Virus record (IMG/VR): IMGVR_UViG_3300045988_016812
DNA: 45,509 nt
Source: a virus
Strand: one strand, 5' to 3'
Both the position numbers and the translations under genes were made by a program. Of the stretch, positions 2,169 through 45,509 are shown piece after piece (the stretch's first letter is position 1; each line of letters opens with the position of its first letter). The notes beneath the pieces are model-generated. The model was not told the DNA's origin. It ran no database searches and worked only from the letters and a program-made list of their open reading frames with translations.

Positions 2169-2522
2169 ATGGAAGAGCGCATAAAAGAATTAAGAAAGGC
2201 GCTTGGGAAAACGCAGCAAGATTTTGCTGATTCTTTGGAATTAAGTAGAAACTTCATTGCTCAAGTAGAAACTGGTGCCAAAACACCAAGCGAGCGAACC
2301 CTTAAAGACATCTGCCGGGAGTTTAAAGTCAATTATGATTGGCTCGTGAACGGAACCGGGGAAATGTTCCAGGATGACGATAGCGATGCGCAGGCTATCG
2401 TGGATTCCGTCATGACGGGAGACAACGAGTTCGCAAAGAAGATTCTTGTACAGTTCGCAAGGCTGGACGAGAGCCGCTGGCGGCAGATCGAAGAGATCCT
2501 AAATGAACTCACAAAAGAATAG
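2169..2522 (+). CDS. CI-like XRE-family repressor (117 aa)
   Basis: GAGGAGGTG RBS; IKELRKALGKTQQDFADSLELSRNFIAQVETGAKTPS HTH; same strand as integrase, divergent from cro-like gene. Confidence 0.8.
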   Translation: MEERIKELRKALGKTQQDFADSLELSRNFIAQVETGAKTPSERTLKDICREFKVNYDWLVNGTGEMFQDDDSDAQAIVDSVMTGDNEFAKKILVQFARLDESRWRQIEEILNELTKE

Positions 2523-2796: not shown

Positions 2797-3936
2797 GTGA
2801 TGAGTATAAAATTTCTGTATTGGCTCTTTGTTGGCTGGTGGATATGGCCGTTCAAAATCATGTGGTGGACAATTTCACTCCCATACCGGCTATACAGGAG
2901 GATCCGGCGATCCCGTGTGAATCATTTCGGCGCGAGATATTATTCTGATTCGTCCGGCATAGACGGGCATAATTATGAATATCACTGCGCGGAACTACTC
3001 AGAAGAAAAGGATTTTCAAAAGTCAGCGTAACCAGAGGGAGCGGAGATCAGGGAATCGACATCATAGCTTATGCCAACAAGAGAAAATTCGGCATACAGT
3101 GCAAGTACTATTCCAAGCCGGTCGGGAACTCCGCAGTTCAAGAGGCTTGTGCCGGGGCGATGTTTTACGGGTGCAATGTGGCGGCAGTGATGACGAATAA
3201 CGGGTTCACAGAGTCCGCTGTGGAGCTGGCGGCGGCAACGGGAGTTTTACTGTGGGGAAACAGTACGATCACGTACCCAGTTCGCAGGGTACCGCTGAGA
3301 TTTCGTATCTTAAGAATAGCCGGAATTTTGGCTCTTGGGATTGGGGTTCTTGGAATTGCCTTATGCATAGAATTTTCCGAAGGATTGAAAAATCTGGATA
3401 TGTTTTCTCTGATATATTTCATCATCATGTCAGCCGCAGGAACACTATCAGTCCTGCAAGCAAAGACCCCGGCGATCGGGCGTTACTCATGTGTGCTGTA
3501 CGGAGTACTCGCGGCGCTGATCATCCCCCGCGCGTCCGAGATGATGCCCGCGGTCATCTTCTTCGCGGTTATGGCGTTCTTCTCCTTACTTCTGAGTAGA
3601 GCGCCAAAGGAAAATCTCCATGAAGAAGATCAACCCGAAGAGCCGCCGGTCCTTCCTGATGTGTGTGTGAATGATGATCATCCTGTGGAAGTTCCCATTC
3701 TACCGGAAGATTTCGAAAGTGGGGACTGGTTCCATCATATCATGCCGATCGAGGTTGCTTCTCCGCCAGTTGCAGCACCGATCGCAAAAGATCCGGTAAA
3801 AGTCAAAAAGAAAGAGCGAAAATATCACAGGGAAAAGCGAATGAGCAAAAAGGATCTGCTTGCATTTGCGAAAATGTGCAACACGCAAATGGAGCATGAT
3901 GAAGAAATGGAAAGATACAACGATATGCAAAAATAA
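2797..3936 (+). CDS. Membrane-anchored protein with Mrr-type (restriction endonuclease, PD-(D/E)xK) catalytic domain
   Basis: N-terminal Trp-rich TM segment, then GHNYEYHCAELLRRKGFSKVSVTRGSGDQGIDIIAYANKRKFGIQCKYY...VQEACAG...TNNGFTESA (Mrr_cat pattern), then several TM helices and acidic/basic tail; start GTG 2797 or ATG 2800. Confidence 0.7.
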   Translation: MMSIKFLYWLFVGWWIWPFKIMWWTISLPYRLYRRIRRSRVNHFGARYYSDSSGIDGHNYEYHCAELLRRKGFSKVSVTRGSGDQGIDIIAYANKRKFGIQCKYYSKPVGNSAVQEACAGAMFYGCNVAAVMTNNGFTESAVELAAATGVLLWGNSTITYPVRRVPLRFRILRIAGILALGIGVLGIALCIEFSEGLKNLDMFSLIYFIIMSAAGTLSVLQAKTPAIGRYSCVLYGVLAALIIPRASEMMPAVIFFAVMAFFSLLLSRAPKENLHEEDQPEEPPVLPDVCVNDDHPVEVPILPEDFESGDWFHHIMPIEVASPPVAAPIAKDPVKVKKKERKYHREKRMSKKDLLAFAKMCNTQMEHDEEMERYNDMQK

Positions 3937-3984: not shown

Positions 3985-4018
3985 AAAACGGTCCGGTGCT
4001 GGTACACCAAACCGTTTT
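3985..4018 (+). terminator. Hairpin terminator after the Mrr-like gene
   Basis: AAAACGGT ... ACCGTTTT 8-bp stem with inner GGTG/CACC pairing. Confidence 0.5.
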
Positions 4019-4144
4019 CATAGTTCCAGAGGTTTACACTTCCGAAACCTACACACATAGTGTAACACCTTCTGGACAGTCACGCAAGCAGAATCGAAAG
4101 ATTTTGGTGGCTGTTATTTTTTTACGATCAAGGAGGTATTTCAT

Positions 4145-5224
4145 ATGGCAACAGCAAAAAAATTACCGTCAGGATCATGGAGATGTCAGGTTTTCTCTCA
4201 TTTTGAGGAACAGATCCAGAAGGACGGTACCATAAAAAAGAAACGGATTTACAGGTCGTTCACTTGTGAAGACCCTACACCAAAGGGAAAAAGGGAATGC
4301 GAGGCGGAGGCGGCAGCCTGGGCAACGAACAAAGAACATTCCTCAAGTATGAGATCCATTACTTTCGGAGACGCTATGGATAATTATATCCGGTCCCGGG
4401 AAAATGTGCTGTCAGTGAGGACTATAGCCGAATACAAGAAAGTACGGAAAACATATTGCAAGGATCTATTGGAAAAGAAAGTGGATCAGATCACGCAGAA
4501 TGACATCCAGAGATCAATCAATCGTGAAGCGCTTACCCACTCGCCAAAGACAGTGCGAAATATCCACGGGCTCATATCGGCAACTTTAAAGGCATACCGC
4601 CCGGAATTTGCCTTGAATACGGCTCTTCCGATGAAAAAGCGTGTTGATCTGTACATTCCTACAGACAGCGAAGTCCAGCGGCTCCTTGAGTATGTGGCTG
4701 GGACTGATATGGAGCTTCCGATTCTTCTGGCTGCATTCGGTCCGATGCGCCGCGGGGAAATCTGCGCTTTGGAGTCTGGAGACATTGCCGGGAACATCGT
4801 CCACGTATGTAAAAACATGGTGCAGAACGAAAATAAGGATTGGATCATCAAAGCTCCTAAATCTTATGCCGGAGACAGATTCATAGATTTCCCGGATTTT
4901 GTTTCAGCAAAATGGAAGGGGATTGACGGAAGGATCGTAAATCTCAATCCAGACATGATAACAAAGCGCTTTGAACATTGCCTTAAGGGCGCGGGGTTGC
5001 CCCATTTCCGTTTCCATGATCTGCGTCATTACTCAGCATCTATACAGCATGCGCTCGGAGTGCCGGACGTTTATATCATGCAGCGCGGAGGATGGAGCAA
5101 TGACGGGGTGCTTAAAGCGGTATACAGGCACGCTCTTTCAGACAGGGCGAGGGAATATTCTGGTGTTGCGAATCGCCATTTCAGCGAACTATGCAACACG
5201 AAATGCAACGCAGAAGAAGAATAA
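4145..5224 (+). CDS. int: Tyrosine integrase (phage integrase family)
   Basis: AAGGAGG RBS; C-terminal catalytic pattern RRGE...HDLRHYSAS...GGW...VYRH; adjacent attP-like site. Confidence 0.9.
   Translation: MATAKKLPSGSWRCQVFSHFEEQIQKDGTIKKKRIYRSFTCEDPTPKGKRECEAEAAAWATNKEHSSSMRSITFGDAMDNYIRSRENVLSVRTIAEYKKVRKTYCKDLLEKKVDQITQNDIQRSINREALTHSPKTVRNIHGLISATLKAYRPEFALNTALPMKKRVDLYIPTDSEVQRLLEYVAGTDMELPILLAAFGPMRRGEICALESGDIAGNIVHVCKNMVQNENKDWIIKAPKSYAGDRFIDFPDFVSAKWKGIDGRIVNLNPDMITKRFEHCLKGAGLPHFRFHDLRHYSASIQHALGVPDVYIMQRGGWSNDGVLKAVYRHALSDRAREYSGVANRHFSELCNTKCNAEEE
5191..5210. promoter_or_regulatory. Candidate integrase arm-type site (two ATGCAAC[A/G]C units 11 nt apart), left of attP core
   Basis: atgcaacacgaaatgcaacg; near-identical doublet at 5408-5429 on the other side of the core. 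Confidence 0.4.
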
Positions 5225-5257
5225 TCCTTATTTTTTAAGGCTATTTTTATATTATCA

Positions 5258-5282
5258 ACAGGTTCAAATCCTGTTGCCCCGA
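5258..5282 (+). other. attP core: 3' fragment of a tRNA gene (T-arm plus 3' acceptor strand plus discriminator)
   Basis: ACAGG-TTCAAAT-CCTGT then TGCCCCG-A; no matching 5' tRNA half upstream; directly 3' of integrase. Confidence 0.55.
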
Positions 5283-5284
5283 CA

Positions 5285-5322
5285 AAACCGAGAAATCCGG
5301 TGCATTCCGGTTTTCTCGGTTT
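5285..5322 (+). terminator. Strong hairpin terminator next to attP core
   Basis: AAACCGAGAAATCCGG / CCGGTTTTCTCGGTTT, 16-bp stem with one mismatch, T-rich tail. Confidence 0.6.
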
Positions 5323-5407
5323 CCTTTATTTTATGCTATTTCTAAGGCTTCCGATACATAAAGATATCTTTATATATTTGTGCTTTTCATCATATATATA
5401 TACTATG

Positions 5408-5429
5408 ATGCAACACAAAATGCAACACG
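5408..5429. promoter_or_regulatory. Candidate integrase arm-type site (second ATGCAAC doublet), right of attP core
   Basis: atgcaacacaaaatgcaacacg; same orientation and spacing as 5191-5210. Confidence 0.4.
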
Positions 5430-5433
5430 AAAA

Positions 5434-6153
5434 TCACTCCACATACCAGCGTTCCATAGCGCCGTTATTTCCTTTTGCGTGCCAGCACGCGCCTTCGTAT
5501 TCTCCGGACTCTTCCAGATAGAACCAATCGCCTACACCTGTTTGCTTTCCGTCAAATTGCACCCATCCGGTCAGCATATAGCCGGACGCTCCGAAGAGGT
5601 AATAATGGTGATTGATGGTTTTCCAACACAGTTTGGGGTATGCCCCGTCCGCATTCCGCCACCACCAGCCGTGAGCGTCGTGTACCCAGCCTTCCGGAAG
5701 ATTCTCCGTCTCTTTTTCCCATGTTGCCATGAAATCCTGCGGAGTGGCATATAGAGCTTTGATCTTCTTTGTACTGCTGCCCCAGTCCGGGAGTTGGAAA
5801 TGTGGCTTGTCCTGAATGGATTTCCAGTTACCACCCCACTCCAAACCGATTGATGTCCCGATTGCACCTACACGGGAAAAGAATCCATCGTTATCATAGT
5901 ACGCTCCCTTCCCGTCTGCGCGGTAGATGTCAAAAGCCGTTCCCCACTGATGGAAGGAGCTATAACTCGTGCCGCGCGCATTTGTCACCCTCGTGCCAGG
6001 TTTTGTTCGCCCCTGCGCATAAAGCGCATCCTGTTCTGCCACGGTGCGGAAGGTCTCGCCGATCTTGATTTTTAATCCTTGATCGGCGCATTTCTGTATC
6101 AGCTCATCCGCGAGCTTCTGGAGCCGCGGATGGCATAATGTAATATCTCTCAC
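5434..6153 (-). CDS. Endolysin: M15-family peptidase (VanY/L-Ala-D-Glu peptidase-like) plus C-terminal cell-wall-binding repeats
   Basis: GTG start with GGAAGGTG RBS; SFHQWGTAFD ... DKPHFQL metal-ligand pattern; C-terminus has GW..G.WYY-like repeats (GWWWRNADG, GWVQFDGK, GDWFYLEESG). Confidence 0.85.
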   Translation of the reverse strand: MRDITLCHPRLQKLADELIQKCADQGLKIKIGETFRTVAEQDALYAQGRTKPGTRVTNARGTSYSSFHQWGTAFDIYRADGKGAYYDNDGFFSRVGAIGTSIGLEWGGNWKSIQDKPHFQLPDWGSSTKKIKALYATPQDFMATWEKETENLPEGWVHDAHGWWWRNADGAYPKLCWKTINHHYYLFGASGYMLTGWVQFDGKQTGVGDWFYLEESGEYEGACWHAKGNNGAMERWYVE

Positions 6154-6165
6154 GTGATCACCTTC

Positions 6166-6675
6166 CTATTCTGCAAATACCCAATCATCCGCAAGCATAT
6201 CCGCTTGTGATGCCAACCATCCCATCTGCACTCCAGATGTGCCCACAAATGCAATGGCTTTGTTGCCAATGGCATCATGCTCGCAATTCACAATCTGCCC
6301 GGATGCGTTCACATAGCTGATATTGGTTGCAATCTCAATGTACTGGCTTTTGCCATTCCATCCCTGTCTTGCTACTTTTAAACCACGTTTCAGATAGCGG
6401 ATAGCGTCTGCAAATGAGAATGTAGCAGTACCGCCCAGCACCGGACAGTTTTTCTCATCTGCAATCTCCCATTCTTCAGACTGCATATTCATGAGCGTGT
6501 ACTCTACACGCTGGGTCTCTCTGATATCAAGGAGATCTCCCTGATCAGGATCCTTCTGTCTGCACCGCATCATAATGGTTTCTTTTTCAGAATCCCAGTA
6601 CCAGTATCCGCCCCAGCCTGGAAGTTTCACCTTAGCTCCGGATTTCATCTTTTCAAATGCTTCTTTAAATTTCAT
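6166..6675 (-). CDS. Tandem DUF2829-like protein (Tad2-like family), copy B, 169 aa
   Basis: MKFKEAFEKMKSGAKVKLPGW...EEWEIAD then FSFADAIRYLKRGLKVARQGWNGK...GWLASQADMLADDWVFAE; 130/169 identical to 8590..9099 by manual alignment. Confidence 0.6.
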   Translation of the reverse strand: MKFKEAFEKMKSGAKVKLPGWGGYWYWDSEKETIMMRCRQKDPDQGDLLDIRETQRVEYTLMNMQSEEWEIADEKNCPVLGGTATFSFADAIRYLKRGLKVARQGWNGKSQYIEIATNISYVNASGQIVNCEHDAIGNKAIAFVGTSGVQMGWLASQADMLADDWVFAE

Positions 6676-6754
6676 TTTTACCTCTTTTCTTTCATAAAAG
6701 TTGACAGCCCGGAAGAATATACTTCCGGGTTGTTGCACCGGTGCAACTCTGGTA

Positions 6755-7222
6755 TCAATCGTGATCTTCCGGAATCGTTACCCCGGCATGAATCAGTTTC
6801 TCCGTCACCGCCAGTCCTCGGATCAGAAACTCCGGCACATTATATCCACACTCCACTAAGTTTTCTAAGATGCTCCGGATTTCATTTACAAGCAACGAGG
6901 TCAATGTAAACCAGCCCAGTAATACCAGAAATCCCAGATCAATTCCTAAAAGATCTTTTCCAAGATGAATAAACAATGCCGGAATCAAAAATGCGACGGC
7001 AATGATGATCCAGTAGCCTACTTTCTTCGCCGCTCCTTTCAATCCCGCCTTGCTGCTTTCTTTTCCCAGTTTTCTCGACTTATACCATCCAGTAAGCCAG
7101 TCCAGAATATTGCAGAGCAAATAGCCCGCAAAAACGTACCAGTAGGTTCCGAAAATTAATGTTAAAATCATCACTACTGAGCCTGCCACAGCATTGTAGC
7201 GATCAATGAAGGTTTTTGTCAT
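6755..7222 (-). CDS. Holin (phage_holin_4_1 / LL-H-like family)
   Basis: Multiple TM helices, motif LCNILDWLTGWYKS...S.AGLKGAAKKVGYW; sits two genes upstream of the endolysin (DUF2829 copy B lies between); ATG 7222 preferred over GTG 7231. Confidence 0.75.
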   Translation of the reverse strand: MTKTFIDRYNAVAGSVVMILTLIFGTYWYVFAGYLLCNILDWLTGWYKSRKLGKESSKAGLKGAAKKVGYWIIIAVAFLIPALFIHLGKDLLGIDLGFLVLLGWFTLTSLLVNEIRSILENLVECGYNVPEFLIRGLAVTEKLIHAGVTIPEDHD

Positions 7223-7323
7223 GATTATCACTCTCTTTCTCTAATTTTATAAATTTTCATCTTTTTGTCGCTGTTTCTGGAGATTTGTATGGCATAATGC
7301 AATATCATTCATGATTTTCTCCT

Positions 7324-8403
7324 TTATTCAAGCCAAATCTCATAAATTTCTCCGAGTATACCAGATACTGCGCTTCCACTACTTGCGCTATACAGTTGGA
7401 AATAAATGCGATCATTAAAGCTCTTTGCCGCACTTCTTAAATCGGACTCATAAACCATCTCACTATATGACAGACTAACTTTATCATTTGCCAAAAGATC
7501 AAAGTCGCTGTTTTGTTTTCCAAAAACATTCACGTAAAATCGATCATAACGTGCTGATGAGATTTTGCATCTCATTTTAAATTTAGAAAATGCGCTAAGA
7601 TTCCACTTACCATTAGTTACCAATGTTCCGCCCGTCCAAGGACTGGATCCAACTTGACTATAAACAATGGCATTTGATGCAAATGTAATTCCCCCATTGT
7701 AAGTGTATTCATCACTAACAGAAATTCCTGCGATATTGTTTCCCCTATTGTATAGATATACATGGGTAGTAGTCGCGCTAACATCTGCTTGTATTCCATC
7801 ATCAAGTCCCGTACAAAAGCTGGTGCAGGAAAAATAGTACTTTGTAAGTGGCTTCAATCCGGTAATATCGGCATAGTTATTCCCATTAGCTTGGTTCGGA
7901 TTGCTTCCAGCCCCAGTGTAAACCCTTGTTCCGCCGCTCGCCCCCGGTGTTCCGTCAGTAGACATCTGGATGCGGATACCTTCCCACGGTCCCTTTGCCG
8001 GGTTCTTCCAGCTGATGCGGATCGTGTTGTGGGAGCGAGCGGCCGCGCTAAAAGATATTGCGGACTGGGTTTCCATTGTCCCAGTGCGGAGAACACCGTC
8101 TTTCCAGTATGTTTTTCCCTTCACGACATAGCGATCTTCCGCTGTAGCTCCGCTTGTCTGGCTTGCCAGGTTCTTCGCTGATACGGAGCCGCCGGTATAA
8201 TGTCCTTCTGATAAGGTCACGGACTCACCAGCGGAAAGTGTTCTTGACAGGTTTCCACGCTCCGGCATTGTGCCGGTCAGCGCTTCATCATCGCTGTCGT
8301 TGGTGACGGCCGTCACGCCTGCGAGCACCTGATTTCGTTTTGCTGTGCAGTCATCGGATCCGGTTCCGGATCCGCCATACTGCTTTAAAAAGGCATCTGC
8401 CAT
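7324..8403 (-). CDS. FN3-domain structural / host-recognition protein (candidate tail fibre or receptor-binding protein)
   Basis: Central fibronectin-III-like segment ISWKNPAKGPWEGIRIQ...ITGLKPLTKYYFSC; beta-rich C-terminus; located between tail genes and holin. Confidence 0.5.
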   Translation of the reverse strand: MADAFLKQYGGSGTGSDDCTAKRNQVLAGVTAVTNDSDDEALTGTMPERGNLSRTLSAGESVTLSEGHYTGGSVSAKNLASQTSGATAEDRYVVKGKTYWKDGVLRTGTMETQSAISFSAAARSHNTIRISWKNPAKGPWEGIRIQMSTDGTPGASGGTRVYTGAGSNPNQANGNNYADITGLKPLTKYYFSCTSFCTGLDDGIQADVSATTTHVYLYNRGNNIAGISVSDEYTYNGGITFASNAIVYSQVGSSPWTGGTLVTNGKWNLSAFSKFKMRCKISSARYDRFYVNVFGKQNSDFDLLANDKVSLSYSEMVYESDLRSAAKSFNDRIYFQLYSASSGSAVSGILGEIYEIWLE

Positions 8404-8497
8404 TTTATTTCTCCTTTCTTATTATTATTGTCACAATTTTATTTTCTTTACGTTTATATTGGTGTAGGGTTCCATACCCCTACGACCTTTTTCTTTT

Positions 8498-8533
8498 GGC
8501 GGCACCCCGCTTTCCCCCGGTGCCGCCGTTTTT
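8498..8533. terminator. GC-rich hairpin; T-tract lies on the plus-strand side
   Basis: GGCGGCACC ... GGTGCCGCC 9-bp stem then GTTTTT on plus strand; on the minus strand it follows DUF2829 copy A without a U-tract. Confidence 0.35.
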
Positions 8534-8589
8534 GTGTCTTCCTGCCCTCGCTCAAATAACAAGTCATCTCGGTAAACTCACCGAAATGG

Positions 8590-9099
8590 TCAGTCTGCGA
8601 ATGTCCAATCCTCTGCCAGCATGTCCGCCTGTGATGCAAGCCATCCCATCTGCACCCCACTTGTGCCGATAAACGCAATGGCCTTGTTTCCGATGGCATC
8701 GTGATCACAGTTCACAATCTCTCCATCAGTCGATTTATACGAGATTGCCGTGGCCAGCTGAATATACTGTTTCTTTCCGTTCCAGCCTTTTCTGGCAACC
8801 TTAAGTCCACGTTTTAAGTATCTGATCGCATCTGAGAAAGAAAATGTTGCAATTCCACCCAGCACCGGGCAATTATGCTCGTCTGCAATCTCCCATTCAT
8901 CTGATGCCACGTTAAGCAGCGTGTATTCTACTCTCTGCGTATCGCGGATGTCGAGAAGCTCGCCATCATCAGCGTCCTCCTTTCGGCACTGCATCATTAC
9001 AGTTCCCTTTCTCGGATCCCAGTACCAGTAACCTCCCCATCCCGGGAGTTTTACTTTTTCTCCTTTTTTCATTAGTTTCAAAGCTTCTTTAAAATTCAT
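8590..9099 (-). CDS. Tandem DUF2829-like protein (Tad2-like family), copy A, 169 aa
   Basis: MNFKEALKLMKKGEKVKLPGW...DEWEIAD then FSFSDAIRYLKRGLKVARKGWNGK...GWLASQADMLAEDWTFAD. Confidence 0.6.
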   Translation of the reverse strand: MNFKEALKLMKKGEKVKLPGWGGYWYWDPRKGTVMMQCRKEDADDGELLDIRDTQRVEYTLLNVASDEWEIADEHNCPVLGGIATFSFSDAIRYLKRGLKVARKGWNGKKQYIQLATAISYKSTDGEIVNCDHDAIGNKAIAFIGTSGVQMGWLASQADMLAEDWTFAD

Positions 9100-9129
9100 A
9101 ATTTTTTCCTTTCTTTTTTGAATTAAAAT

Positions 9130-9360
9130 GTGTTATGTAAAATAACAATACGAGCCAATCGTGCAATCTTGCCATTTGGAAAAACAAATTTTGTAAGCTT
9201 TTATCACAGAGGCATTACACAGGGCTATGATTCGAGAATAGCATACGAAGGTGTTTGTGTTGCTATAAACGCCAAAAAAGGAGATACTATCATTCCATAC
9301 GTTCATACAGATAAATCAAATGTAGCATTCAATGTCAATATTGTTGCAATGCGTGTTTGA
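9130..9360 (+). CDS. Orphan opposite-strand ORF (76 aa), possibly a gene fragment
   Basis: Fills the only gap in the tail region; beta-rich sequence ...ITQGYDSRIAYEGVCVAINAKKGDTIIPYVHTDKSNVAFNVNIVAMRV; only GTG/TTG starts, no RBS, AT-rich. Confidence 0.2.
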   Translation: MLCKITIRANRAILPFGKTNFVSFYHRGITQGYDSRIAYEGVCVAINAKKGDTIIPYVHTDKSNVAFNVNIVAMRV

Positions 9361-9368
9361 TAATATAA

Positions 9369-9911
9369 TCATGATTTCTTTTTGAACAGAACTTTCACAT
9401 AAACGCCTCCGGTTCCACCATAAAAAGGCTGTAAGTATACTCTAATTTTGTCTTCAACAATGCCTTGTTGAGATAAAGCGGCTGGAGTATTTAATATATA
9501 AGTATCTACAACGTCTAATAATTCATACCCATCTGGAACTGTAAATGGGACATCACAAATATATCCTTCATTCGCCTTGACGGTAACTTGAGCATTAAAA
9601 GTCTTTGCAATGATATTCTTACTCAAATTGTTATTTACATCCGAGATAGCTCCGGAGTTCTTTGTTACCTGAGACTGTAAATCCTTGATAACATCAACGG
9701 CGGAATTGAGTGCATCCGTGACGCGTTTGATCGCCTGTTCCGGCTTATTCAGATGCTCCGCATCAATGTCCGGAGAAGAGTTGTCTACCCAAGTGGTAGG
9801 GGTGTAAGCTTCGATTTTTGCAAGAGCATCAGCAAGAGCCTGTGCGGATGCGAGGGAAACTGTATTTTCTTCTGCCTGCGTGCTGTTCTCGTTTTTCTCT
9901 AATTCTTCCAT
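9369..9911 (-). CDS. Tail-fibre-like protein (coiled N-terminal half, beta-rich C-terminal domain), 180 aa
   Basis: AAGGAGG RBS; position after tail-tip genes; helical segment ...AIKRVTDALNSAVDVIKDLQSQV. Confidence 0.4.
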   Translation of the reverse strand: MEELEKNENSTQAEENTVSLASAQALADALAKIEAYTPTTWVDNSSPDIDAEHLNKPEQAIKRVTDALNSAVDVIKDLQSQVTKNSGAISDVNNNLSKNIIAKTFNAQVTVKANEGYICDVPFTVPDGYELLDVVDTYILNTPAALSQQGIVEDKIRVYLQPFYGGTGGVYVKVLFKKKS

Positions 9912-9922
9912 GCTGTTCCTCC

Positions 9923-10363
9923 TTATGATCTGTGGATTTCTATGGGCAAGTCAAGGTTTGGCTTGTCGAAATTGCAGTATGCCGTGAGCTGTCCATCCCC
10001 GGTAACGATCCGATCCACCTTGTTCCATTCCTTCCGGCGCGCTTTTTTGCTTGCCTTAGATGTCAGATCATCGGTGCAGGAGATATCCGGGCGGTCCGTG
10101 CCCTTAAGTCCTTCAACAGTGATCGTCTGCATGTATGGTGCACTTGTGGTCCATCCTCCAGCCGTCAATGTGCCGGTACGCACATCATAGAGCCGGTTGA
10201 TCGCCATGTTTGTCGCGTTGATGTCCTCAGCCTTAAACGGGTCTCCCTCCTGCGTGTAAGTGGTCTGATCCACAAGGGAAATTGTCCCGTCCGAGTTGCT
10301 CACCTGATTGTATTTTCGGTTTCCTTCATAGATGTCATCCTTATAGTTCGTTTTTAATGGCAT
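9923..10363 (-). CDS. Tail-associated protein, 146 aa
   Basis: GGAGGT RBS; FKAEDINATNMAINRL motif that I associate with phage fibre/baseplate upper proteins; position. Confidence 0.4.
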   Translation of the reverse strand: MPLKTNYKDDIYEGNRKYNQVSNSDGTISLVDQTTYTQEGDPFKAEDINATNMAINRLYDVRTGTLTAGGWTTSAPYMQTITVEGLKGTDRPDISCTDDLTSKASKKARRKEWNKVDRIVTGDGQLTAYCNFDKPNLDLPIEIHRS

Positions 10364-10366
10364 GTC

Positions 10367-10780
10367 TTACCTCCTGTCTCCGATTGGCTTTGTTCCCAGC
10401 CGGAACGCAAGCCGCCGCGCCCCGGACATAGAGGATTGATACATTTCATAGATGTCTGCAAGAATTTGTTCGATATTGTTGGCTTCCGTAACGGACTGAT
10501 ATTCGATTCTCTGCGGCGTTGCCGGGGTCGTTGGCTTTGTGAAGTATGCCTCTCTCAGCGCCTGTATGTTTCCGCGAATCCGTTGCATATCGCTGTCGGT
10601 ACGGAAATCTCGCATTGTCCAGTCTGTTTTTGTATTGATGTCCACAAGCAGGATGTCCGCAAGATCCCGGCAGGCTGTTTCTACACGGTTAAGGTCCGTA
10701 TAAGCAATGCAGCCTTTTTCCGTGCGGTTTGTTACATCGTCCGCCGTGCGGTCTGTTATCAGAGTCTCAAAAACGCTCAT
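10367..10780 (-). CDS. Tail-associated protein, 137 aa
   Basis: Overlaps upstream gene by ATGA; position directly after the large tail-tip protein. Confidence 0.4.
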   Translation of the reverse strand: MSVFETLITDRTADDVTNRTEKGCIAYTDLNRVETACRDLADILLVDINTKTDWTMRDFRTDSDMQRIRGNIQALREAYFTKPTTPATPQRIEYQSVTEANNIEQILADIYEMYQSSMSGARRLAFRLGTKPIGDRR

Positions 10781-12984
10781 CCTATCTCTACCTCCGCTGT
10801 CATTTCTCGTGTGAATGTGAAATCCATCTTTTTAATGGCTCCGATCCGTGTCCCGTCAAAGTCTGTATCTACTGAAACAATATCCCCCAACTCTTCCTCA
10901 TTGAGTAAGACACGGCAGGAAACAGACTCGTTGCTGCCGTAATAATCGTATACACGATTAAGAACTTCATTCACATTCTGGGGGTTTACGAGTGTCGCGT
11001 CCTTCACTTCCACGAGATTCTCATTCTGTGATATGTTAGGGTTCGCTTTCTCATACAGGGTTGTCATGTGGGTGTATTTCTTGCCAGTCAGAACTACTTC
11101 GCTACCGGTTCCGGTAATGACCGCCCAGTTATCTCCGGACGCGCTGATCGCGCCGCCGGTGATTACAAGATCATAATGGGCTTCCGAGAACGTAATCTGA
11201 GCCGTCCCATTCAGAGTATCTTTATAGAGTTCCTCCGATTCCGAGGATTTCACGTAAGTGTGCGCGTATACCTTTGCACCAGTGGTGATGTCGCTGTGGT
11301 CGATCGTCAGCCCCGATAGAGTGTTGGACTTCGTAAAGTTCTGCTTCGTGGCTCTCATGCCTGGTACAAGTCCTTTTCCCGGATGGAGTCCCATATGCGG
11401 CTTTATGATGCCTGTATTCCGAGGATAGATATACAGATTGAGATCATACGCGGTGTTGACAGATGCCCCGATTGCAAAAGCAACTTGAGCGAGCGCGTCA
11501 CGCCTGCGGCAGACTGGAAGATATCCGCTTACTGTCAGATTTTCCAAGGTCTGATCAAGGAAATAATCAATCCCCTGTCCTTCGAAAATCGCCGCTATGA
11601 CGTTTTTGACTGGCTCATTATTGTATATGCCGCCCATAAAGTCTGTCGTGTCTAAAAGCCCCACAGCATCCTCAGTATTAACCTCGTAGTCCGTTTTGCT
11701 TACACGCTTCCCGGATTTCAAATAGAAAATTCCGATAATATTTTCATCAAAATATAATTTCATTTGCTGGCGGCGCTGGAAGTTGAATGCAATGTTCGAC
11801 TTGCTCCGGATCGTGAAGCTTAATGTGTTGATACTAAGCTCTTCGCTGATCGGGCTCATTTCAATAAAACAATCTACATTCTTCGCTTCGTCATCCAAGA
11901 ATGTACGCCCAAGCCCATACTGGATATCCGATAAAAATACCGGTCTGAACGGTCTTGATGTCTTTTCAAAGGCGATCGTGATCCTATTGTAATACTCCTC
12001 TGGATGATAGCAGAAATACTCATACCCGTCTGGATGGAACGTCTCAGAGGATAATGTCTCGCCGTCACGATACCATGTGATGGCAAGTTGAGAGCAATAG
12101 TCTCCGGAATGATCATTGAACACCAGAGAGATGCCCTGACTGCTGTATTTATCTGAAAATGTCGCGGTCAGTGTAGGCAACTCATATTCGCTGCTTGGAT
12201 ACAGTCCGGGATGCGGAACTAAACCAGCCGTGGGGCGGATGGTTCCGTGCGGGAAATTCCCGTTCTCATCTGATACCAGCCGGGATATATATCCGACTTC
12301 CGGGAAAACATCATAGTTCTTATATCCCTCATTCAGCAGGGAATACCCCTGATAGTTCAGTGCCACATCAGGGAAGGAATATTTCTTTTTCAGATTGCCC
12401 AGCCGCCCACCATCATTCACACTGTACTCCGCGTTTTCTTTCGCTCCGAGGGCGATATCGCCATATACGATCTTGAGTCCTCCAGCGTCCACAAGCCTGT
12501 AGTTTGTGATCTTCGAAATCCAAATATGGCGGTACGGCCGCGAAGTGTGAAGAAACGTGATTTCCACCTCGTTATGGAGCTTTACAGATGCTTCGCAAAA
12601 ATACACACTTGATGTCGGCGAAAAATCCATGCTTTCCACAAGAGCACCGCTTTTATACCACTTAATATTAACTTTGTCCGCATAGTCTCCGGAAATATCG
12701 TTAAAATTCAGCGTGATTCCTCTGGAAGTCTTGAGTCTATCAAAATGAATTTGAAGAATAGGAGGATCTGCAAAGTCTCCGTTCCCGTCTGATATCTGGC
12801 TACTGGTATACCCACTTTTCCCCTCCGGGATCCTGTCCGGAGCGTTTTTGTAGCTGCCATTCAGAAGGGAATAGCCCGGAAGGAGATAGGCATACCCAGG
12901 AATCGGATTTTCCTGATTTGTGAGCTCACTTGTGGAGGAATAATACTCTTCCCCATTCGCTGATATTGACACATCCCACTTCAT
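10777..12984 (-). CDS. Large tail-tip / baseplate protein (Tal-like), 735 aa, with two internal N-terminal repeats
   Basis: Follows TMP and Dit-like gene; residues ~40-160 and ~215-345 are paralogous (LLNGSYKN...ITLNFNDISGDYADKVNIKWY vs LLNEGYKN...ISLVFNDHSGDYCSQLAITWY). Confidence 0.6.
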   Translation of the reverse strand: MKWDVSISANGEEYYSSTSELTNQENPIPGYAYLLPGYSLLNGSYKNAPDRIPEGKSGYTSSQISDGNGDFADPPILQIHFDRLKTSRGITLNFNDISGDYADKVNIKWYKSGALVESMDFSPTSSVYFCEASVKLHNEVEITFLHTSRPYRHIWISKITNYRLVDAGGLKIVYGDIALGAKENAEYSVNDGGRLGNLKKKYSFPDVALNYQGYSLLNEGYKNYDVFPEVGYISRLVSDENGNFPHGTIRPTAGLVPHPGLYPSSEYELPTLTATFSDKYSSQGISLVFNDHSGDYCSQLAITWYRDGETLSSETFHPDGYEYFCYHPEEYYNRITIAFEKTSRPFRPVFLSDIQYGLGRTFLDDEAKNVDCFIEMSPISEELSINTLSFTIRSKSNIAFNFQRRQQMKLYFDENIIGIFYLKSGKRVSKTDYEVNTEDAVGLLDTTDFMGGIYNNEPVKNVIAAIFEGQGIDYFLDQTLENLTVSGYLPVCRRRDALAQVAFAIGASVNTAYDLNLYIYPRNTGIIKPHMGLHPGKGLVPGMRATKQNFTKSNTLSGLTIDHSDITTGAKVYAHTYVKSSESEELYKDTLNGTAQITFSEAHYDLVITGGAISASGDNWAVITGTGSEVVLTGKKYTHMTTLYEKANPNISQNENLVEVKDATLVNPQNVNEVLNRVYDYYGSNESVSCRVLLNEEELGDIVSVDTDFDGTRIGAIKKMDFTFTREMTAEVEIG

Positions 12985-12985
12985 G

Positions 12986-13384
12986 TTATCTCCTTCTCTG
13001 CGGTTCCATCGCTACAAAGTTGAGCTTAAGATTATCATCATAGCCCCACAAATTAACGCCCTCTCTGCGGATCATGGTGTCGTTTGCTTCTGTGATGTAT
13101 GCCTTAAATGATAATGTTTCCTGTCCGTACGGGAACACCAGATCATGGCTATCTACTGGAGCACTTACCACATCATACAGTCTGTCGTAATCCTGATGCT
13201 TTCCTTCTTTTGCGGCTACTTCAAGCGTGTAATTGTAGTATGTTCCGATGATGTCCCGATGCATTACTCCGTCAAGTGTGCGCCCGGAGTTGTCCGTGTC
13301 CGTCACCTTTGCATTTCTTGAGAGTTTCATGACATTGACATCATATTCCACCCCATCCACTGTAAACACTGCAAAATGGTTCAT
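12986..13384 (-). CDS. Short distal-tail-protein-like component, 132 aa
   Basis: Immediately downstream of TMP (4-nt overlap), beta-rich; assignment by position. Confidence 0.4.
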   Translation of the reverse strand: MNHFAVFTVDGVEYDVNVMKLSRNAKVTDTDNSGRTLDGVMHRDIIGTYYNYTLEVAAKEGKHQDYDRLYDVVSAPVDSHDLVFPYGQETLSFKAYITEANDTMIRREGVNLWGYDDNLKLNFVAMEPQRRR

Positions 13385-16065
13385 CGGCTTCCTCCTGTTA
13401 CAAGTCTCACGCTTCCGCGGTTGTTTTCTGCATCAATTACGGGTTTCAGTACGCGCCCAAGCTGCGCAAGGTTGCCCTCGAAGCGGATCACGACTTGCTG
13501 GCTTCCGCCCACTCCGCTCTCTGCAAGTGCTTCCATAAGTGCCTGTTTCATTGTGCTGAGTGGAGAAACAACCTCGGTTTCCTGTTTGTTATCGCCCAGG
13601 ATCGCCGCAAACTCACCCGCGCGTGGCGGCACCACCGTACCGGATGCCAGACGCGGCAAATGTACCTTGCTTACGGTCGGAATGTCCAGTCCGAAGGATT
13701 CTCCGCCGATTCCCGGCACCCAGTCAGGAATATCAAAGCTCAGATTGTTAAGTGCGCTGATCATCCTATTCAGCGCATTGATGACACCGTTCACCATCGA
13801 CTCCACACCGCCGAGGATTGTGTTGATGACGGATTTCATCGCGCCCCAGATGCCATTCCATATTGTGCTGGTCTCCGATTTTAACGTGTTCCATGCGGCT
13901 ACAATACAGTCTTTGATCGCCGTGAATTTTGCCGTTGCGCTGTTCCGAATCTCCTCCCACTTCGTTCCAAGTGTGCTGTTGATAGATCCCCATGCGCTCT
14001 CAGTGCTGGTTTTCGTCTCGTTCCAACGCGTTGATACAGTTTCCTTGATCGCCTGAAACTTCTCGCTGGCGGATGTTTTGACCGCTGTCCATGTGCTTTC
14101 AAGCCCGCTCTTAATGCTGCTCCATTTCTCCTGTGTCTTCTGCTTAGTCTCGTCCCACTTAGCGATGATCTTATCCTTGATCTCTGCGAATTTCGCAATA
14201 ACGGAGGAAATGAAATTGCTGATTCCGTCACGGAGTCCTTCCATGAGGTACTGTCCCATTTCCATCATGACGGTGGAAGGGCTGTGGATTCCGAATGCAG
14301 ACTTGAAGCCATTGATAAACGGTTTGAAAATGTTGTTCACAATCCATGATCCGACATTTCGGAGTGCGTTTATGATTCCGTTCCAGAGTCCCTGCACGAT
14401 ATCTCCGCCGGACGCTTCAATGTATCCGGAGAAATACGAAACTACACTGTCCCACGCATTTGCGAGTACATCCCCGAGTCCCTTCAGGAGATCTATTCCG
14501 GATGCAATCGCTGTTCCGATCAGCTCTCCGACCGAACTAAAGACGCTTGCATAGTCGAATCCCTTAAGAAATCCCCCGATTGCATTGATGAGCCCCATAG
14601 GAATTGCGCGCCAGTCAACGCCCTGGAACAGTCCTGTAATGAGCTGCACAAGTCCGGAAACGAAATGAGAAACTACACTTCCGAGTGTGCTCCAGCTAAA
14701 CGTAGAGAAGAATCCTGTAAGTCCGGCAGTGATCGCCGTTCCGATTCCTTTCCAGTTAGTTGTGGAAAGAAACTGATCCAGTTTTCCCATCGCAAAGTTT
14801 ACGCCGGTTCCGATCTGCGTACCGATGTAGTTTCCGACTCCCTTCCAGTCTTCTGCGGCGATCAGCTTTTTGATAGTGTCCGCCATGTTTTTGATGGAGG
14901 AGCTGATCTGTTCAGTCGTAAACATGTCTTGTGGGGACGTGCTACTGCCTCCACCGCCGGATCCGGAATCCTTGCTTTTCGATCCAATCTGTTCGATCGT
15001 ATCAAACGAGGCAAGGCTTTTTTCTGCCTGCTTCGCTGCTGATCCTGTTTTTTTCAACGAGGACGCATAATTCTCCTGCACCTTTGTGGCTTTCACGAAT
15101 GTGTTCTTGCCGGTCAGTGCCGAGAAAAATTGTGCCACTGCATTGGCGGCTGTAGTCAAAAGGCTGATGAGTGTATTCAGTGCCGGAGCGATCATCGTAA
15201 GGATCGGGGCGAATGCTGTGGCAAGTGCGTTTTTGAGCTGTGTCAGTGAGGACATCAGCCCGGATACTGTGTTGTTTGTGTCCCCCGAATACTGGACGAG
15301 GTTTTTCATCCCTTCGCCCACAGCGCTCCGGAGGCGATTGAAGAGGGCAAACAGGGACCGGATACCGAATGCATAGCTCAACATTTTCTTGAAGCTCATG
15401 CCAGCTTTGTCGATTCCTTTTTGCAAGCCTCCGCTGGATTTTGTTGCTTTTTTTGCTTTATCTTCGTAATCTTTTACACTTGCCTTCAGGGAATCAAACG
15501 ATGTGCGCACTCGATTGTTGGTATCCTCAAGTGCTGCCTGCGCTGCGACGTACTGCGCTACAACTTTCTGTCCTGACTCTGTATCAGCTCCAGACATATA
15601 TGCTCCGCCAGAGGATTCCAACGCTGTTTTTGCCTTCTGCGCTTCTTCGAGTTTCTCACGCAGCATGTCGATATCGTATTCCATTCCTTTAAAAGCCCGG
15701 CTATTCTGCTTTCCTCCGGTCTCCACGAATCTGATTTCGCGCTCGATCGCTGCATCAAGCTTTTTGTTTACGGAGTCAATTTCCTTGTTAAGATCGGTGT
15801 ATTCCTGTGTAGGAATCTTTTCTTCCTTAAGAGCATCTACCTTTTCCTTGAGGGTTTCTACCTTTCGTGTCTGTTCTGCATACTGGCTGTTGAGCTTAGC
15901 GAATGCGTTTGCCTGCTTCTGCAGTGCCGCTTTCGCCTTGTCTCCGATTCCAGAGACAGACTCCGCCATGCGGCGTGCGGCGGTTTCCATTTCCTTCGTT
16001 CCAGCTACAAATCCCTCATCTGTGATTGTTGTGTCAATTACTATGGTTCCGTCAGCCTGTCCCAT
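13381..16065 (-). CDS. Tape measure protein, 894 aa
   Basis: Longest ORF; coiled-coil N-terminus, Gly/Ala/Ser-rich hydrophobic middle, repeated W..[IT]K/W..TK segments; preceded by chaperone genes. Confidence 0.85.
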   Translation of the reverse strand: MGQADGTIVIDTTITDEGFVAGTKEMETAARRMAESVSGIGDKAKAALQKQANAFAKLNSQYAEQTRKVETLKEKVDALKEEKIPTQEYTDLNKEIDSVNKKLDAAIEREIRFVETGGKQNSRAFKGMEYDIDMLREKLEEAQKAKTALESSGGAYMSGADTESGQKVVAQYVAAQAALEDTNNRVRTSFDSLKASVKDYEDKAKKATKSSGGLQKGIDKAGMSFKKMLSYAFGIRSLFALFNRLRSAVGEGMKNLVQYSGDTNNTVSGLMSSLTQLKNALATAFAPILTMIAPALNTLISLLTTAANAVAQFFSALTGKNTFVKATKVQENYASSLKKTGSAAKQAEKSLASFDTIEQIGSKSKDSGSGGGGSSTSPQDMFTTEQISSSIKNMADTIKKLIAAEDWKGVGNYIGTQIGTGVNFAMGKLDQFLSTTNWKGIGTAITAGLTGFFSTFSWSTLGSVVSHFVSGLVQLITGLFQGVDWRAIPMGLINAIGGFLKGFDYASVFSSVGELIGTAIASGIDLLKGLGDVLANAWDSVVSYFSGYIEASGGDIVQGLWNGIINALRNVGSWIVNNIFKPFINGFKSAFGIHSPSTVMMEMGQYLMEGLRDGISNFISSVIAKFAEIKDKIIAKWDETKQKTQEKWSSIKSGLESTWTAVKTSASEKFQAIKETVSTRWNETKTSTESAWGSINSTLGTKWEEIRNSATAKFTAIKDCIVAAWNTLKSETSTIWNGIWGAMKSVINTILGGVESMVNGVINALNRMISALNNLSFDIPDWVPGIGGESFGLDIPTVSKVHLPRLASGTVVPPRAGEFAAILGDNKQETEVVSPLSTMKQALMEALAESGVGGSQQVVIRFEGNLAQLGRVLKPVIDAENNRGSVRLVTGGSR

Positions 16066-23262: not shown

Positions 23263-23336
23263 TGGACCATCAGGGATTCGAACCCCGAACCGTCCGGTTA
23301 TGAGCCGGATGCCCTTGCCGATTGGGCGAATGGTCC
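23263..23336 (-). tRNA. tRNA with CAU anticodon (elongator Met or Ile2 type); CCA not encoded
   Basis: GGACCAT-TC-GCCC-AATCGGCAA-GGGC-A-TCCGG-CTCATAA-CCGGA-CGGT-TCGGGG?TTCGAAT-CCCTG-ATGGTCC-A folds as a cloverleaf; G1:C72 and no GGG/CCC anticodon stem, so not initiator-like. Confidence 0.85.
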
Positions 23337-36394: not shown

Positions 36395-37432
36395 TTATGC
36401 GCTCAACCTCTGGCGTACGCTTCTCAGCGACTCCGTTGTGGACTGAGCGTAATACATACTGGTGACTGCCGGTGACGCGTGTCCGAGGATCTCTTGGATA
36501 ATGCCGATATCAAGGCCGTGCTGCTTGAGATCCATTCCCAGTGTCTTACGCATCTTGTGCGGATACACACGGCACTGGATCTTCGCACGCTTGCCGATTT
36601 TTCTCATGATAGTCCGGTACGTTGCCGTCCCCATCCTCCCTCGCTTTGCTCCCACGGTCTGGGTAAAGAGGTACGGGCTGTTATCCTTCCTCTCATCAAG
36701 ATACGCTGCAAGATAATATCTCGCCTCCGCATCCAGATATAATGTTCTGGCACGTCCGCCCTTCTCGCCAATGATCGGGATGTCCCCGGTATGCATATCC
36801 ACTTGATCTAGGCGGATATCTGCGATCTCACCTACACGCGCACCCGTGGAACGGAATACCTCGATAATGGCACGATCCCGTTTCGTTTTGCACGCGTCCC
36901 GCAGCTCAATGATCTCCTCCCGGCTATAGTAGTCGATTTTCCCCATCGCAACCTTTTTCGCGTCCACATTATCGACCGGGTTGTCCTGTATGATCTTTGA
37001 TTTCCGCATCCACGTAAAGAATGCAGAGAGATTCCGGCGCTCATTATTATAGGTTCGGTTCGTGATCTGCTCCGTCCTCACGCCTTTATGCTTCTCATAC
37101 TGTGCCAGATACCAATCAATATCCAGCGTGTCAATGAGATCAAGACGTTTCCCTGTAGCCAGTACCAAGCGGCGTACCGATCCCATATACGCCTCAATCG
37201 TGCGCTTTTTTAGGTGGCGTTTCTGGATCATAAAGAGCTGCACGAGATAGGCATTCCGCTGATCCACGCTACTTTTAACCTCTGCCGGAAGAGTCGTGAT
37301 CTCTTCGACATTCACCTTCATAAGCTCATTAGCCAGCACAAGCTCCAATACATCAAGGGCTTCTCTGTCCTGGATATATACGGACATTGTAACGGTTACA
37401 TTATTGATAATATCGGATTTAATGTTACTCAT
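36395..37432 (-). CDS. Second tyrosine recombinase (XerC/XerD-like), 345 aa
   Basis: AAGGAGG RBS; RDRAIIEVFRSTGARVGE ... HKMRKTLG ... LGHASPAVTSMYY (R, HxxR, Y catalytic pattern). Confidence 0.85.
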   Translation of the reverse strand: MSNIKSDIINNVTVTMSVYIQDREALDVLELVLANELMKVNVEEITTLPAEVKSSVDQRNAYLVQLFMIQKRHLKKRTIEAYMGSVRRLVLATGKRLDLIDTLDIDWYLAQYEKHKGVRTEQITNRTYNNERRNLSAFFTWMRKSKIIQDNPVDNVDAKKVAMGKIDYYSREEIIELRDACKTKRDRAIIEVFRSTGARVGEIADIRLDQVDMHTGDIPIIGEKGGRARTLYLDAEARYYLAAYLDERKDNSPYLFTQTVGAKRGRMGTATYRTIMRKIGKRAKIQCRVYPHKMRKTLGMDLKQHGLDIGIIQEILGHASPAVTSMYYAQSTTESLRSVRQRLSA

Positions 37433-44794: not shown

Positions 44795-45107
44795 TTTTCA
44801 ACAACTCCTTTTCTTCTTTCACGTCCTTAATCAATGGTTCTAATCCTCTGTACTCTATTTTGTCTGTTCTCCCACTGTAACATTTGCAACTTGCTTCATA
44901 TCCACTATGCGGATCCCATCCGCGCTCGTGGATTGTAACTTCCACCAATGGAATGTGTCCGCAAAACTCGAAGAACGCAGTTGGCTTGATTCCAGTCACT
45001 TCCCGGGCCCGCTCGCCTGTGGTATTGATCTCCAGCACCATTTCCAGAATCTCGTGCACCTTCTTGCGGCGCATCTTCTCAACCTTCTTTTCCAGTCTCT
45101 TCTTCAT
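44778..45107 (-). CDS. Hypothetical protein, 109 aa
   Basis: AAGGAGG RBS. Confidence 0.5.
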   Translation of the reverse strand: MKKRLEKKVEKMRRKKVHEILEMVLEINTTGERAREVTGIKPTAFFEFCGHIPLVEVTIHERGWDPHSGYEASCKCYSGRTDKIEYRGLEPLIKDVKEEKELLKSVGQV

Positions 45108-45509
45108 CGGAATCCTCCTTGCTTAAATCAATCTGAATTTTTGCCAGTGCAATCGCGGCTTTATACGCCTGTGCGTGCTTATTGTCACCGTGCGTCCTTT
45201 CCACAGCCTCAAGAAACTCATCTATATTCCCTCTAAAGCATCCACATTTCACTCCGATAGTAAGATGTATCGTCCGGAAAAATGTTGTGAAATCATCACG
45301 ACTACCCAGCGGACCAACAACCAAATAATGAGACATCTTAAACACCCGCGCATTGCCGTACACCCGCGCATTGCCGTACACCCACGCATTGCCGGACACC
45401 CACGCATCGCCGTACACCCGCGCATTGCCGGACACCCGCGCATTGCCGTACACCCGCGCATTGCCGTACACCCGCGCATTGCCGTACACCCGCGCATTGC
45501 CGTACACCC
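45079..45509 (-). CDS. Hexapeptide-repeat protein, C-terminal part (continuation of 250..1)
   Basis: No stop between 45509 and 45079; 9 repeat units then FKMSHYLVVGPLGSRDDFTTFFRT...; phase continuous with 1..250. Confidence 0.7.
   Translation of the reverse strand, partial: VYGNARVYGNARVYGNARVYGNARVSGNARVYGDAWVSGNAWVYGNARVYGNARVFKMSHYLVVGPLGSRDDFTTFFRTIHLTIGVKCGCFRGNIDEFLEAVERTHGDNKHAQAYKAAIALAKIQIDLSKEDSDEEETGKEG
45342..45509. repeat. 18-bp tandem repeat, 9 units plus 6 nt, coding
   Basis: Direct reading; last four units identical. Confidence 0.95.

Follow-up and report, generated by a model that had tools for sequence, protein, structure and literature searches.

Tandem-domain Tad2-like proteins in the lysis region of a phage genome: putative signal sponges present as two recombined alleles

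The 45,509-nucleotide (nt) viral DNA of IMG/VR record IMGVR_UViG_3300045988_016812, referred to here as the window (the whole analysed stretch), carries in its lysis region two genes, copy A (6166..6675) and copy B (8590..9099), each of which encodes a protein of 169 amino acids (aa) with two DUF2829 (Tad2-like) domains in tandem. The original prediction had placed open reading frames (ORFs) of this length at these positions without stating the strand, and both were recovered there on the minus strand. We consider it probable that the two proteins are intact members of a large two-domain branch of the Tad2/DUF2829 family of sponges, with a putative role in sequestering defence signals, and that they represent old alleles that were recently brought together by recombination and are likely to be redundant. 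The main interest of these proteins lies in their heterodomain architecture and in the apparent late-gene counter-defence slot that they occupy. The double-copy state matters less, and provides a clear case of module shuffling that stacks two presumed counter-defence alleles.

A canonical and a divergent DUF2829 domain in one polypeptide

Both genes start with an ATG that is preceded by a Shine-Dalgarno-like sequence. For copy A, a GTG-started ORF of 190 aa (6166..6738) is an alternative, the homologues being 169 aa long. The only significant Pfam match on either protein was PF11195 ('Tad2-like', Thoeris anti-defense 2-like domain; gathering threshold 25 bits), which scored 80.4 bits on copy A and 89.2 bits on copy B with two matched stretches in each, and no match to a second sponge family (PF13876 or PF21825) was found on them. 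PHROG 1048 ('unknown function') was matched by both proteins over their full length (E = 1e-55 for A and 2e-56 for B). As anticipated in the original prediction, the proteins belong to the Tad2/DUF2829 family, on the combined evidence of Pfam, phmmer and Foldseek, but this assignment had to be refined, since the N-terminal half is not a canonical Tad2 domain.

The C-terminal half comprises residues 86-169 (6169..6420 in copy A and 8593..8844 in copy B, both on the minus strand) and by itself scored 68-72 bits over the whole PF11195 profile (67.8 bits for A, covering profile positions 2-71 of 73, and 71.5 bits for B). When residues 86-167 were compared by phmmer with the solved chains of SPO1 Gp34.65, HgmTad2/AcrIIA7, ModTad2 and SptTad2, E-values between 5e-10 and 4e-8 were obtained (4.8e-10 for copy B against the SPO1 Tad2 chain 8sme_A). 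An AlphaFold model of full-length copy B (predicted local distance difference test score, pLDDT, 77.6) was searched against the PDB with Foldseek, and the best 18 matches were all Tad2 structures (probability 1.00, target TM-score 0.49-0.67) with SPO1 Tad2 at the top, the first match after these 18 having an E-value above 0.5. SPO1 Tad2 contacts 1''-3' glycocyclic ADP-ribose (gcADPR) through W25, N26, W73 and D79, and also through S76 and T78 (10.1101/2023.05.01.538930). The positions of W25, N26, W73, S76 and D79 align to W106, N107, W153, S156 and D159 in both A and B, and T78 aligns to A158. Among 107 family members, these five contact positions of the C domain are 83-95% conserved. Judged from the alignments and the model, the C-terminal half is a canonical Tad2 domain that keeps the gcADPR-contact residues.

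The N-terminal 'WGGYW' half comprises residues 1-73 (6457..6675 in copy A and 8881..9099 in copy B, minus strand). When a profile built from 86 N-terminal halves of the family was aligned by hhalign with the profile of the C-terminal halves, a probability of 96.2% was obtained (E = 2.4e-9, 67 columns), and for this reason we regard the N-terminal half as a genuine, though remote, homologue of DUF2829. The claim that each protein contains two DUF2829-like halves is therefore upheld for the C-terminal half as a canonical domain and for the N-terminal half by profile-profile comparison, with the qualification that the N-terminal half alone stays below the Pfam threshold. In the same 107 family members, K17, G23, W25 and W69 of the N domain are 99-100% conserved and W21 and N63 97-98%. 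The N domain is thus not decaying, and its conservation is no lower than that of the C-domain motif. No characterised Tad2 scored above 20 bits against the N-domain profile. The type IV Thoeris inhibitor Tad2_79 has a similar 'LPKW' motif and was considered as a possible relative of the N domain, but the idea was dropped (8 identities in 22 positions and 16 bits against the N profile).

The N-domain type also occurs as a stand-alone gene, namely as the 75-aa gp24 of Ruminococcus phage RG-TP1, which is 70% identical to the N domain of copy B, and it is likewise found alone in a Clostridium perfringens phage. The Bacillus phages phi4J1, SpaA1, BceA1 and Waukesha92 have two overlapping DUF2829 genes, the upstream one of the WGGYW type and the downstream one of the canonical GWNGK type. 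In the phi4J1-type pair, an 80-aa WGGYW-type gene is followed by an 87-aa GWNGK-type gene, which is the domain order of A and B. Unlike A and B, however, the Bacillus pair consists of separate genes that lie outside the lysis cassette, and its first gene keeps a C-terminal QADMLAEDW and scores 39 bits against the N profile versus 43 bits against the C profile. These arrangements suggest that the 169-aa protein might be a fusion of two DUF2829 paralogues that pair elsewhere, an idea that is suggestive rather than proven because the first Bacillus gene is only loosely related to the N domain described here.

The tandem architecture is widespread. A word-indexed search retrieved 6,725 clusters at E <= 1e-3, the best 120 of which were all 160-213 aa long and 75-86% identical, and an exhaustive search of 50%-identity representatives gave 2,811 matches. 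The best 150 of those representatives included 54 with the N-C arrangement, 84 with the C domain only, 5 with the N domain only and 3 with a C-C arrangement. Species-representative genomes contained 244 confirmed relatives, nearly all of them in Lachnospiraceae and other Clostridia (Blautia, Dorea, Coprococcus, Clostridium sp.), and at least 564 relatives were found in IMG/VR. The N-C architecture is common in prophages of human-gut Lachnospiraceae and Clostridia. Among isolated phages, full-length homologues were limited to gp19 of the R. gnavus phage phiRg507T2_3 (79% identical to B) and a protein of Dorea phage DO134P1 (68%). Both are full-length tandem proteins, and gp19 lies between holin and endolysin like copy A, but each of these phages has a single copy and the proteins are annotated as hypothetical. 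Some phage records annotate homologues as anti-CRISPR. In a literature search, no description of tandem DUF2829 proteins was found. The widest functional survey, of 18 Tad2 homologues, includes from this clade only Tad2_84, a truncated protein of 60 aa (10.1101/2025.08.24.671296), which is 63% identical to the C domain and is without the WLASQxD motif.

The closest points of comparison are the characterised Tad2 sponges. SPO1 Tad2 (Gp34.65; PDB 8SME/8SMF/8SMG, 8WJE) is an anti-Thoeris gcADPR sponge that aligns end to end with residues 86-167, all five contact residues named above being kept. It differs in being an 89-aa single-domain homotetramer, whereas A and B carry the additional divergent N-terminal DUF2829 domain, and, besides the replacement of T78 by Ala, the insertion loop differs in sequence. 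Tad2_82, a metagenomic 80-aa protein from IMG/VR that was validated against type I Thoeris (Table S2 of 10.1101/2025.08.24.671296), is 44% identical to the C domain and has the same GWLASQADMLADDW motif (SQAD), including the T-to-A change, but it is a single domain without a WGGYW partner. HgmTad2/AcrIIA7 and SptTad2 (PDB 8KBI-8KBM, 8WJC, 8WJD) are dual sponges for gcADPR and cyclic dinucleotides. Their GWNGK and GWLASQxDMLAxDW motifs match those of A and B, and both were among the Foldseek matches. The dinucleotide pocket of HgmTad2, however, lies in a long insertion (R31, S47, F70, N85). In phmmer comparisons with HgmTad2 only residues 86-116 and 149-167 align and the insertion does not, so that these four residues could not be placed in A or B. 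Nor did the N-terminal extension of HgmTad2 (about 47 aa) align with the N domain of A and B, and it is without the GW motif of the DUF2829 domain. Proteins that combine Tad2 with a second small sponge-type domain in one polypeptide are known as Acb4-Tad2 (Pasteurella phage Pm86) and Tad2-Sequestin, in which unrelated families are fused and each is modelled as its own homo-oligomer (10.1101/2025.07.12.664507). In A and B, by contrast, both halves are DUF2829, and the two halves would therefore be expected to share one assembly.

Sequence divergence and function of the two copies

Copies A and B are alike far beyond chance. The identity of 130/169 (77%) given in the original prediction was reproduced by BLASTP, with 150/169 positives, no gaps and E = 7e-105. 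The reported clustering of the 39 differences was likewise confirmed, 10 of the 19 residues in 29-47 and 6 of the 10 residues in 118-127 being different as compared to 0.12-0.21 differences per position elsewhere, and the GWNGK and C-terminal DW motifs are indeed the same in both proteins. At the DNA level the coding sequences are 72% identical. The similarity starts at the ATG and stops at the stop codon, and the flanks are unrelated. The proportion of synonymous differences is saturated (pS = 0.73) at a nonsynonymous divergence (dN) of 0.18, giving a ratio of nonsynonymous to synonymous divergence (dN/dS) of about 0.06. These values mark A and B as old lineages under purifying selection.

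The original prediction held that two diverged copies could cover two different signal molecules, which the present data do not bear out: the contact residues are the same except for I144/V144, the copies were recently joined, and none of the 160 related loci carries such a pair. A broader form of this idea is that both copies are kept because they differ in function, by binding separate signals or by forming A-B hetero-oligomers with new pockets, which would widen the range of counter-defence. Both copies are intact and have diverged under the strong purifying selection described above, and residues 29-47 and 118-127, where the changes are densest, make up the insertion loops of the two domains. 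A second pocket, which takes cyclic dinucleotides or cyclic uridine monophosphate, is built by the corresponding insertion of HgmTad2 and MoTad2 (10.1101/2023.11.15.567273, 10.1101/2025.08.24.671296), and this lends some weight to a functional difference, as do the known variation of specificity among close Tad2 homologues and the existence of a related phage with two different sponges (Tad2-like and Sequestin) at equivalent positions. We nevertheless judge a functional difference to be fairly unlikely. Of the SPO1 ligand-lining equivalents, only the position of I63 differs between the copies, being I144 in B and V144 in A, so that the predicted gcADPR contacts are the same but for one conservative exchange. 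The differences also fall where the family as a whole varies: the column entropy across the family is 2.21 bits where A and B differ versus 1.21 bits where they are the same (Mann-Whitney p = 5e-10), 36 of the 39 changes lie in family-variable columns and only 3 in well-conserved ones, and residues 40-44 are absent in 70% of the family. No insertion of the HgmTad2 type could be aligned. Moreover, the pair is both recent and rare, as each copy lies in a block of DNA that is 97-100% identical to a one-copy phage. The copies have been together too briefly to have diverged since joining, and nothing points to selection for the pair. With the same predicted contact residues, A and B are in all likelihood redundant or differ only in subtle ways. 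By analogy with the known insertions, different secondary specificities may be conferred by the insertion-loop patches, and A-B hetero-oligomers are possible.

Late-gene setting and putative role of the tandem protein

The placement in the lysis region had been predicted correctly: copy A lies between holin and endolysin, and copy B lies one gene further upstream, before a gene with an fn3 domain. All of these genes are on the minus strand. The holin gene (6755..7231) encodes a Phage_holin_4_1 protein (Pfam E = 1.2e-29), the endolysin gene (5434..6153) was recognised by Pfam as Peptidase_M15_4/VanY with a choline-binding repeat, and the gene in between copy B and the holin gene (7324..8403) encodes a 359-aa protein with Pfam fn3 and Pur_ac_phosph_N domains that is chimeric according to its identity profile. 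Copy A is embedded in the lysis operon, since it is separated by 79 nt from the stop codon of the holin gene and by 12 nt from the GTG start of the endolysin gene. Copy B is a stand-alone cassette with intergenic spacers of 269 nt upstream and 186 nt downstream. Directly 3' of its stop codon, a consensus scan marked a terminator-like hairpin with a 10-pair stem and a T-rich tail (8565..8588, minus strand; a pattern match only). No private promoter of copy B was found in the 269-nt upstream spacer, the scan giving 10 promoter-like sites versus 8.3 expected by chance. Upstream of copy B lies a conserved leader of about 55 nt (TTGTTATTTTACATAACACATTTTAATTCAAAAAAGAAAGGAAAAAATT-ATG; 9097..9150, minus strand, defined by alignment), which contains the inverted repeat TGTTAT/ATAACA and a ribosome-binding site. 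The leader recurs, nearly identical, in L004, a relative with copy B only (L004:9476-9537 and 9953-10013), where it also precedes a DUF6275 gene, and it looks like a reusable cassette junction.

In related phages the tandem gene occurs at different positions among the late genes. In L093 and L095, two loci with a Tad2-like protein that shares 86% identity with B, the order is Tad2-like gene, 101-aa gene, holin, Sequestin and Amidase_2 endolysin. The Sequestin gene (PF21825, 63.8 bits; L093:6358-6624 and L095:1440-1706) occupies the slot that copy A has in the window, and Sequestin is a separate sponge family that was experimentally shown to bind 3' cyclic ADP-ribose (10.1101/2025.07.12.664507). 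Other relatives have the tandem gene between Holin_SPP1 and endolysin genes with overlapping stop and start codons, and in further relatives it lies between a Mu_F-like minor head gene and a scaffold gene. On this distribution the tandem gene behaves like a moron, using several late-region slots and not being bound to one late function. Of the 80 genome loci, 18 have a gene for a DUF6275 protein (PF19791, about 88 aa, 101 bits) no more than 7-8 kb away from the tandem gene, as have 23 of the 80 IMG/VR loci. Most of those in the genome set directly adjoin the tandem gene (for example L004:9525-9791 and L097:5522-5797). The literature search returned nothing on DUF6275, which is a candidate for a further counter-defence or sponge gene. 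Two other loci carry a ThsB_TIR and SLATT_1 gene pair beside a serine recombinase gene (L007:13203-14283 and L012:8442-9522), which indicates that TIR signalling is present in this phage community. As the Tad2-like protein of L007 and L012 is identical to A, one element combines a TIR-type defence with a putative sponge for TIR signals. The Sequestin neighbour, the moron-like placement and the TIR pair all speak for a counter-defence role of the tandem gene.

Several observations weigh against a sponge role for A and B. The late-operon placement is atypical, as counter-defence genes are usually made early. The only clade relative that was assayed, the Tad2_84 fragment, was inactive in 7 of 7 assays, an outcome that is uninformative (10.1101/2025.08.24.671296). 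The monomer model of copy B has its lowest confidence (pLDDT 57-64) near the W153-D159 motif. Furthermore, the N-terminal half alone scored under the PF11195 threshold (19.9 bits for A and 24.2 bits for B), with coverage limited to profile positions 1-49 of 73. Of the SPO1 contacts it keeps only W21 (equivalent to W25), with N26 replaced by G22 and D79 by N63, and the segment W73-T78 is either deleted (in the MAFFT alignment) or represented by Y59, T60 and L62 (in the hhalign alignment). On these alignments the N domain lacks most of the ligand-contact residues. Finally, an N-domain-only model of copy B (pLDDT 80.6, predicted template modelling score, pTM, 0.72) gave no Tad2 structure among the 50 Foldseek PDB matches listed, and no PDB match at E <= 0.001. 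The fold comparison with Tad2 structures that the original prediction had proposed therefore gave a positive answer for the full-length model of B, with Tad2 structures in the top 18 places, and a negative one for the N domain by itself, so that the homology claim for the N-terminal half rests on profiles.

Some of these observations would also fit a protein that is not a sponge, but either a lysis or virion accessory with a DUF2829 fold or an anti-CRISPR of the AcrIIA7 type. The gene has a late-operon location and in some relatives overlaps the holin and endolysin genes or in others lies between minor-head and scaffold genes, PHROG 1048 is annotated as 'unknown function', AcrIIA7 has the same domain and some homologues are annotated as anti-CRISPR, and the N domain is without the ligand-contact residues. 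Such a role seems distinctly unlikely to us all the same. The occurrence in at least 3 unrelated late-region slots argues against a role tied to lysis or head assembly, and the family as a whole conserves the gcADPR contacts of the C domain, which a purely structural role would not need. In addition, the same slot holds Sequestin in a relative, and attempts to reproduce the anti-CRISPR activity of AcrIIA7/HgmTad2 did not succeed (10.1101/2023.11.15.567273).

If A and B are indeed sponges, each polypeptide would be a covalent pseudo-heterodimer, two of which would assemble into a Tad2-like pseudo-tetramer. The two-fold interfaces of a tetramer of D2 symmetry are of three kinds. Of these, a pair of N-C chains would keep only one homotypic (N:N' and C:C'), and the other two would become N:C interfaces. 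Should the gcADPR interface be the homotypic one, the assembly would have one canonical C:C' pocket and one altered N:N' pocket; otherwise both pockets would be N:C hybrids. The tandem protein would be made together with the late genes, and the assembly would sequester ADP-ribose-type signals derived from TIR proteins of Thoeris-like systems in a Lachnospiraceae host. The characterised signal sponges (Tad1, Tad2, Acb2, Acb4 and Sequestin) are described as small homo-oligomers with identical pockets. A fusion of a canonical Tad2 domain with a divergent but conserved DUF2829 domain would break this homo-oligomer symmetry, and could illustrate the way in which new or asymmetric ligand pockets arise in sponges. 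A bolder version, which we regard as speculative and unlikely, supposes that the pseudo-tetramer is asymmetric and that its pockets are of two chemically distinct kinds. The N pockets (K17, W21, G23, W25, N63, W69) would then catch a signal outside the range of all known sponges, such as the product of the TIR-SLATT pair of the sister prophages, and co-assembly of A and B could mix pockets. If true, this would be the first Tad2 sponge of a heteromeric type, and the late-gene slot of these gut phages, shared with Sequestin and DUF6275, would be a counter-defence island.

Origin of the two-copy state and other features of the window

To return to the two copies, a mosaic profile was obtained by comparing identities in a 100-nt sliding window with L004, which has copy B only, and L007, which has copy A only, supplemented by blastn. 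The profile delimits two sharp blocks on the minus strand. The first (8401..9150) comprises copy B with about 50 nt upstream and the downstream spacer, and is 97-100% identical to L004. The second (6201..8000) comprises the 3' two-thirds of the fn3 gene, the holin gene and copy A, and is 98-100% identical to L007. By blastn it also matches L008-L012, which have copy A only, at about 90% over a longer stretch. The 5' 400 nt of the fn3 gene (8001-8400) closely match neither of the two parents, whereas its 3' part is L007-like, and this pattern places the crossover zone inside the fn3 gene. The endolysin stretch (6200-5401) does not closely match L004 or L007 either. Because the two blocks have near-identical counterparts in different one-copy phages, the pair is the outcome of a recent recombination of modules in and around the fn3 gene.

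The distribution of the two alleles agrees with this history. The exact copy A protein occurs in 228 blocks of the collection. In the other prophages with exact A (L007-L010 and L012), it never has a second copy beside it, and the genes follow the order fn3, holin, A, endolysin. The exact copy B protein was found on only 4 contigs, including L004, a close relative with the same tail genes that has B, the fn3 gene and the endolysin gene, and is without Phage_holin_4_1 or copy A here. By tblastn, a second copy within 7-8 kb was found in none of the 80 genome loci and none of the 80 IMG/VR loci. The sole apparent double (L147:7001-7508, IMG/VR) is one tandem Tad2-like gene that is frameshifted after about residue 22, apparently either a pseudogene or a sequencing error. 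Among isolated phages, megablast found no close DNA relative of positions 4000-16000 of the window. The mosaic structure shows A and B to be old alleles of two phage lineages that were recently joined by recombination, and the double-copy arrangement is a rare recombination by-product without sign of specialisation. A gene duplication within this phage followed by divergence, for which the equal lengths, the gapless alignment, the common strand and the distance of 1.9 kb might speak, is so improbable that it can be set aside, as the flanks are unrelated up to the start and stop codons, the synonymous sites are saturated, A and B are 85% and 82% identical to the L013 allele and hence about as close to alleles in other genomes as to one another (77%), and the stretches around the two copies are matched almost exactly by two different one-copy phages.

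Elsewhere in the window, several further features were recorded. Both ends (1-107 and 45342-45509) consist of the same 18-nt tandem repeat (ACACCCGCGCATTGCCGT) in 5.9 and 9.3 copies, respectively, and the right-hand array lies inside an ORF (45079..45507, minus strand). The presence of arrays at both ends suggests a circular phage genome whose assembly was broken within the array. On the plus strand, a gene with an Mrr_cat restriction-endonuclease domain (2797-3936) lies between the integrase gene (4145..5224) and a 117-aa ORF (2169..2522), and is also present in L004 and L005. The 117-aa ORF is taken as a helix-turn-helix (HTH) repressor gene, since its 117-aa equivalent in L004 and L005 is an HTH_19 gene, and the Mrr_cat gene is probably a prophage-borne defence moron. 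A 542-aa ORF (30278-31906, minus strand) combines a Terminase_2 small-subunit domain (residues 4-109) with the large-subunit domains Terminase_3 and Terminase_3C. In the early region, a second tyrosine recombinase gene (Phage_integrase, 112 bits) lies beside a gene with a PAPS_reduct domain (36395-37483 and 37652-38422, both on the minus strand). A tRNA-Met (CAT) gene (23263-23336, minus strand) is located within the structural gene region.

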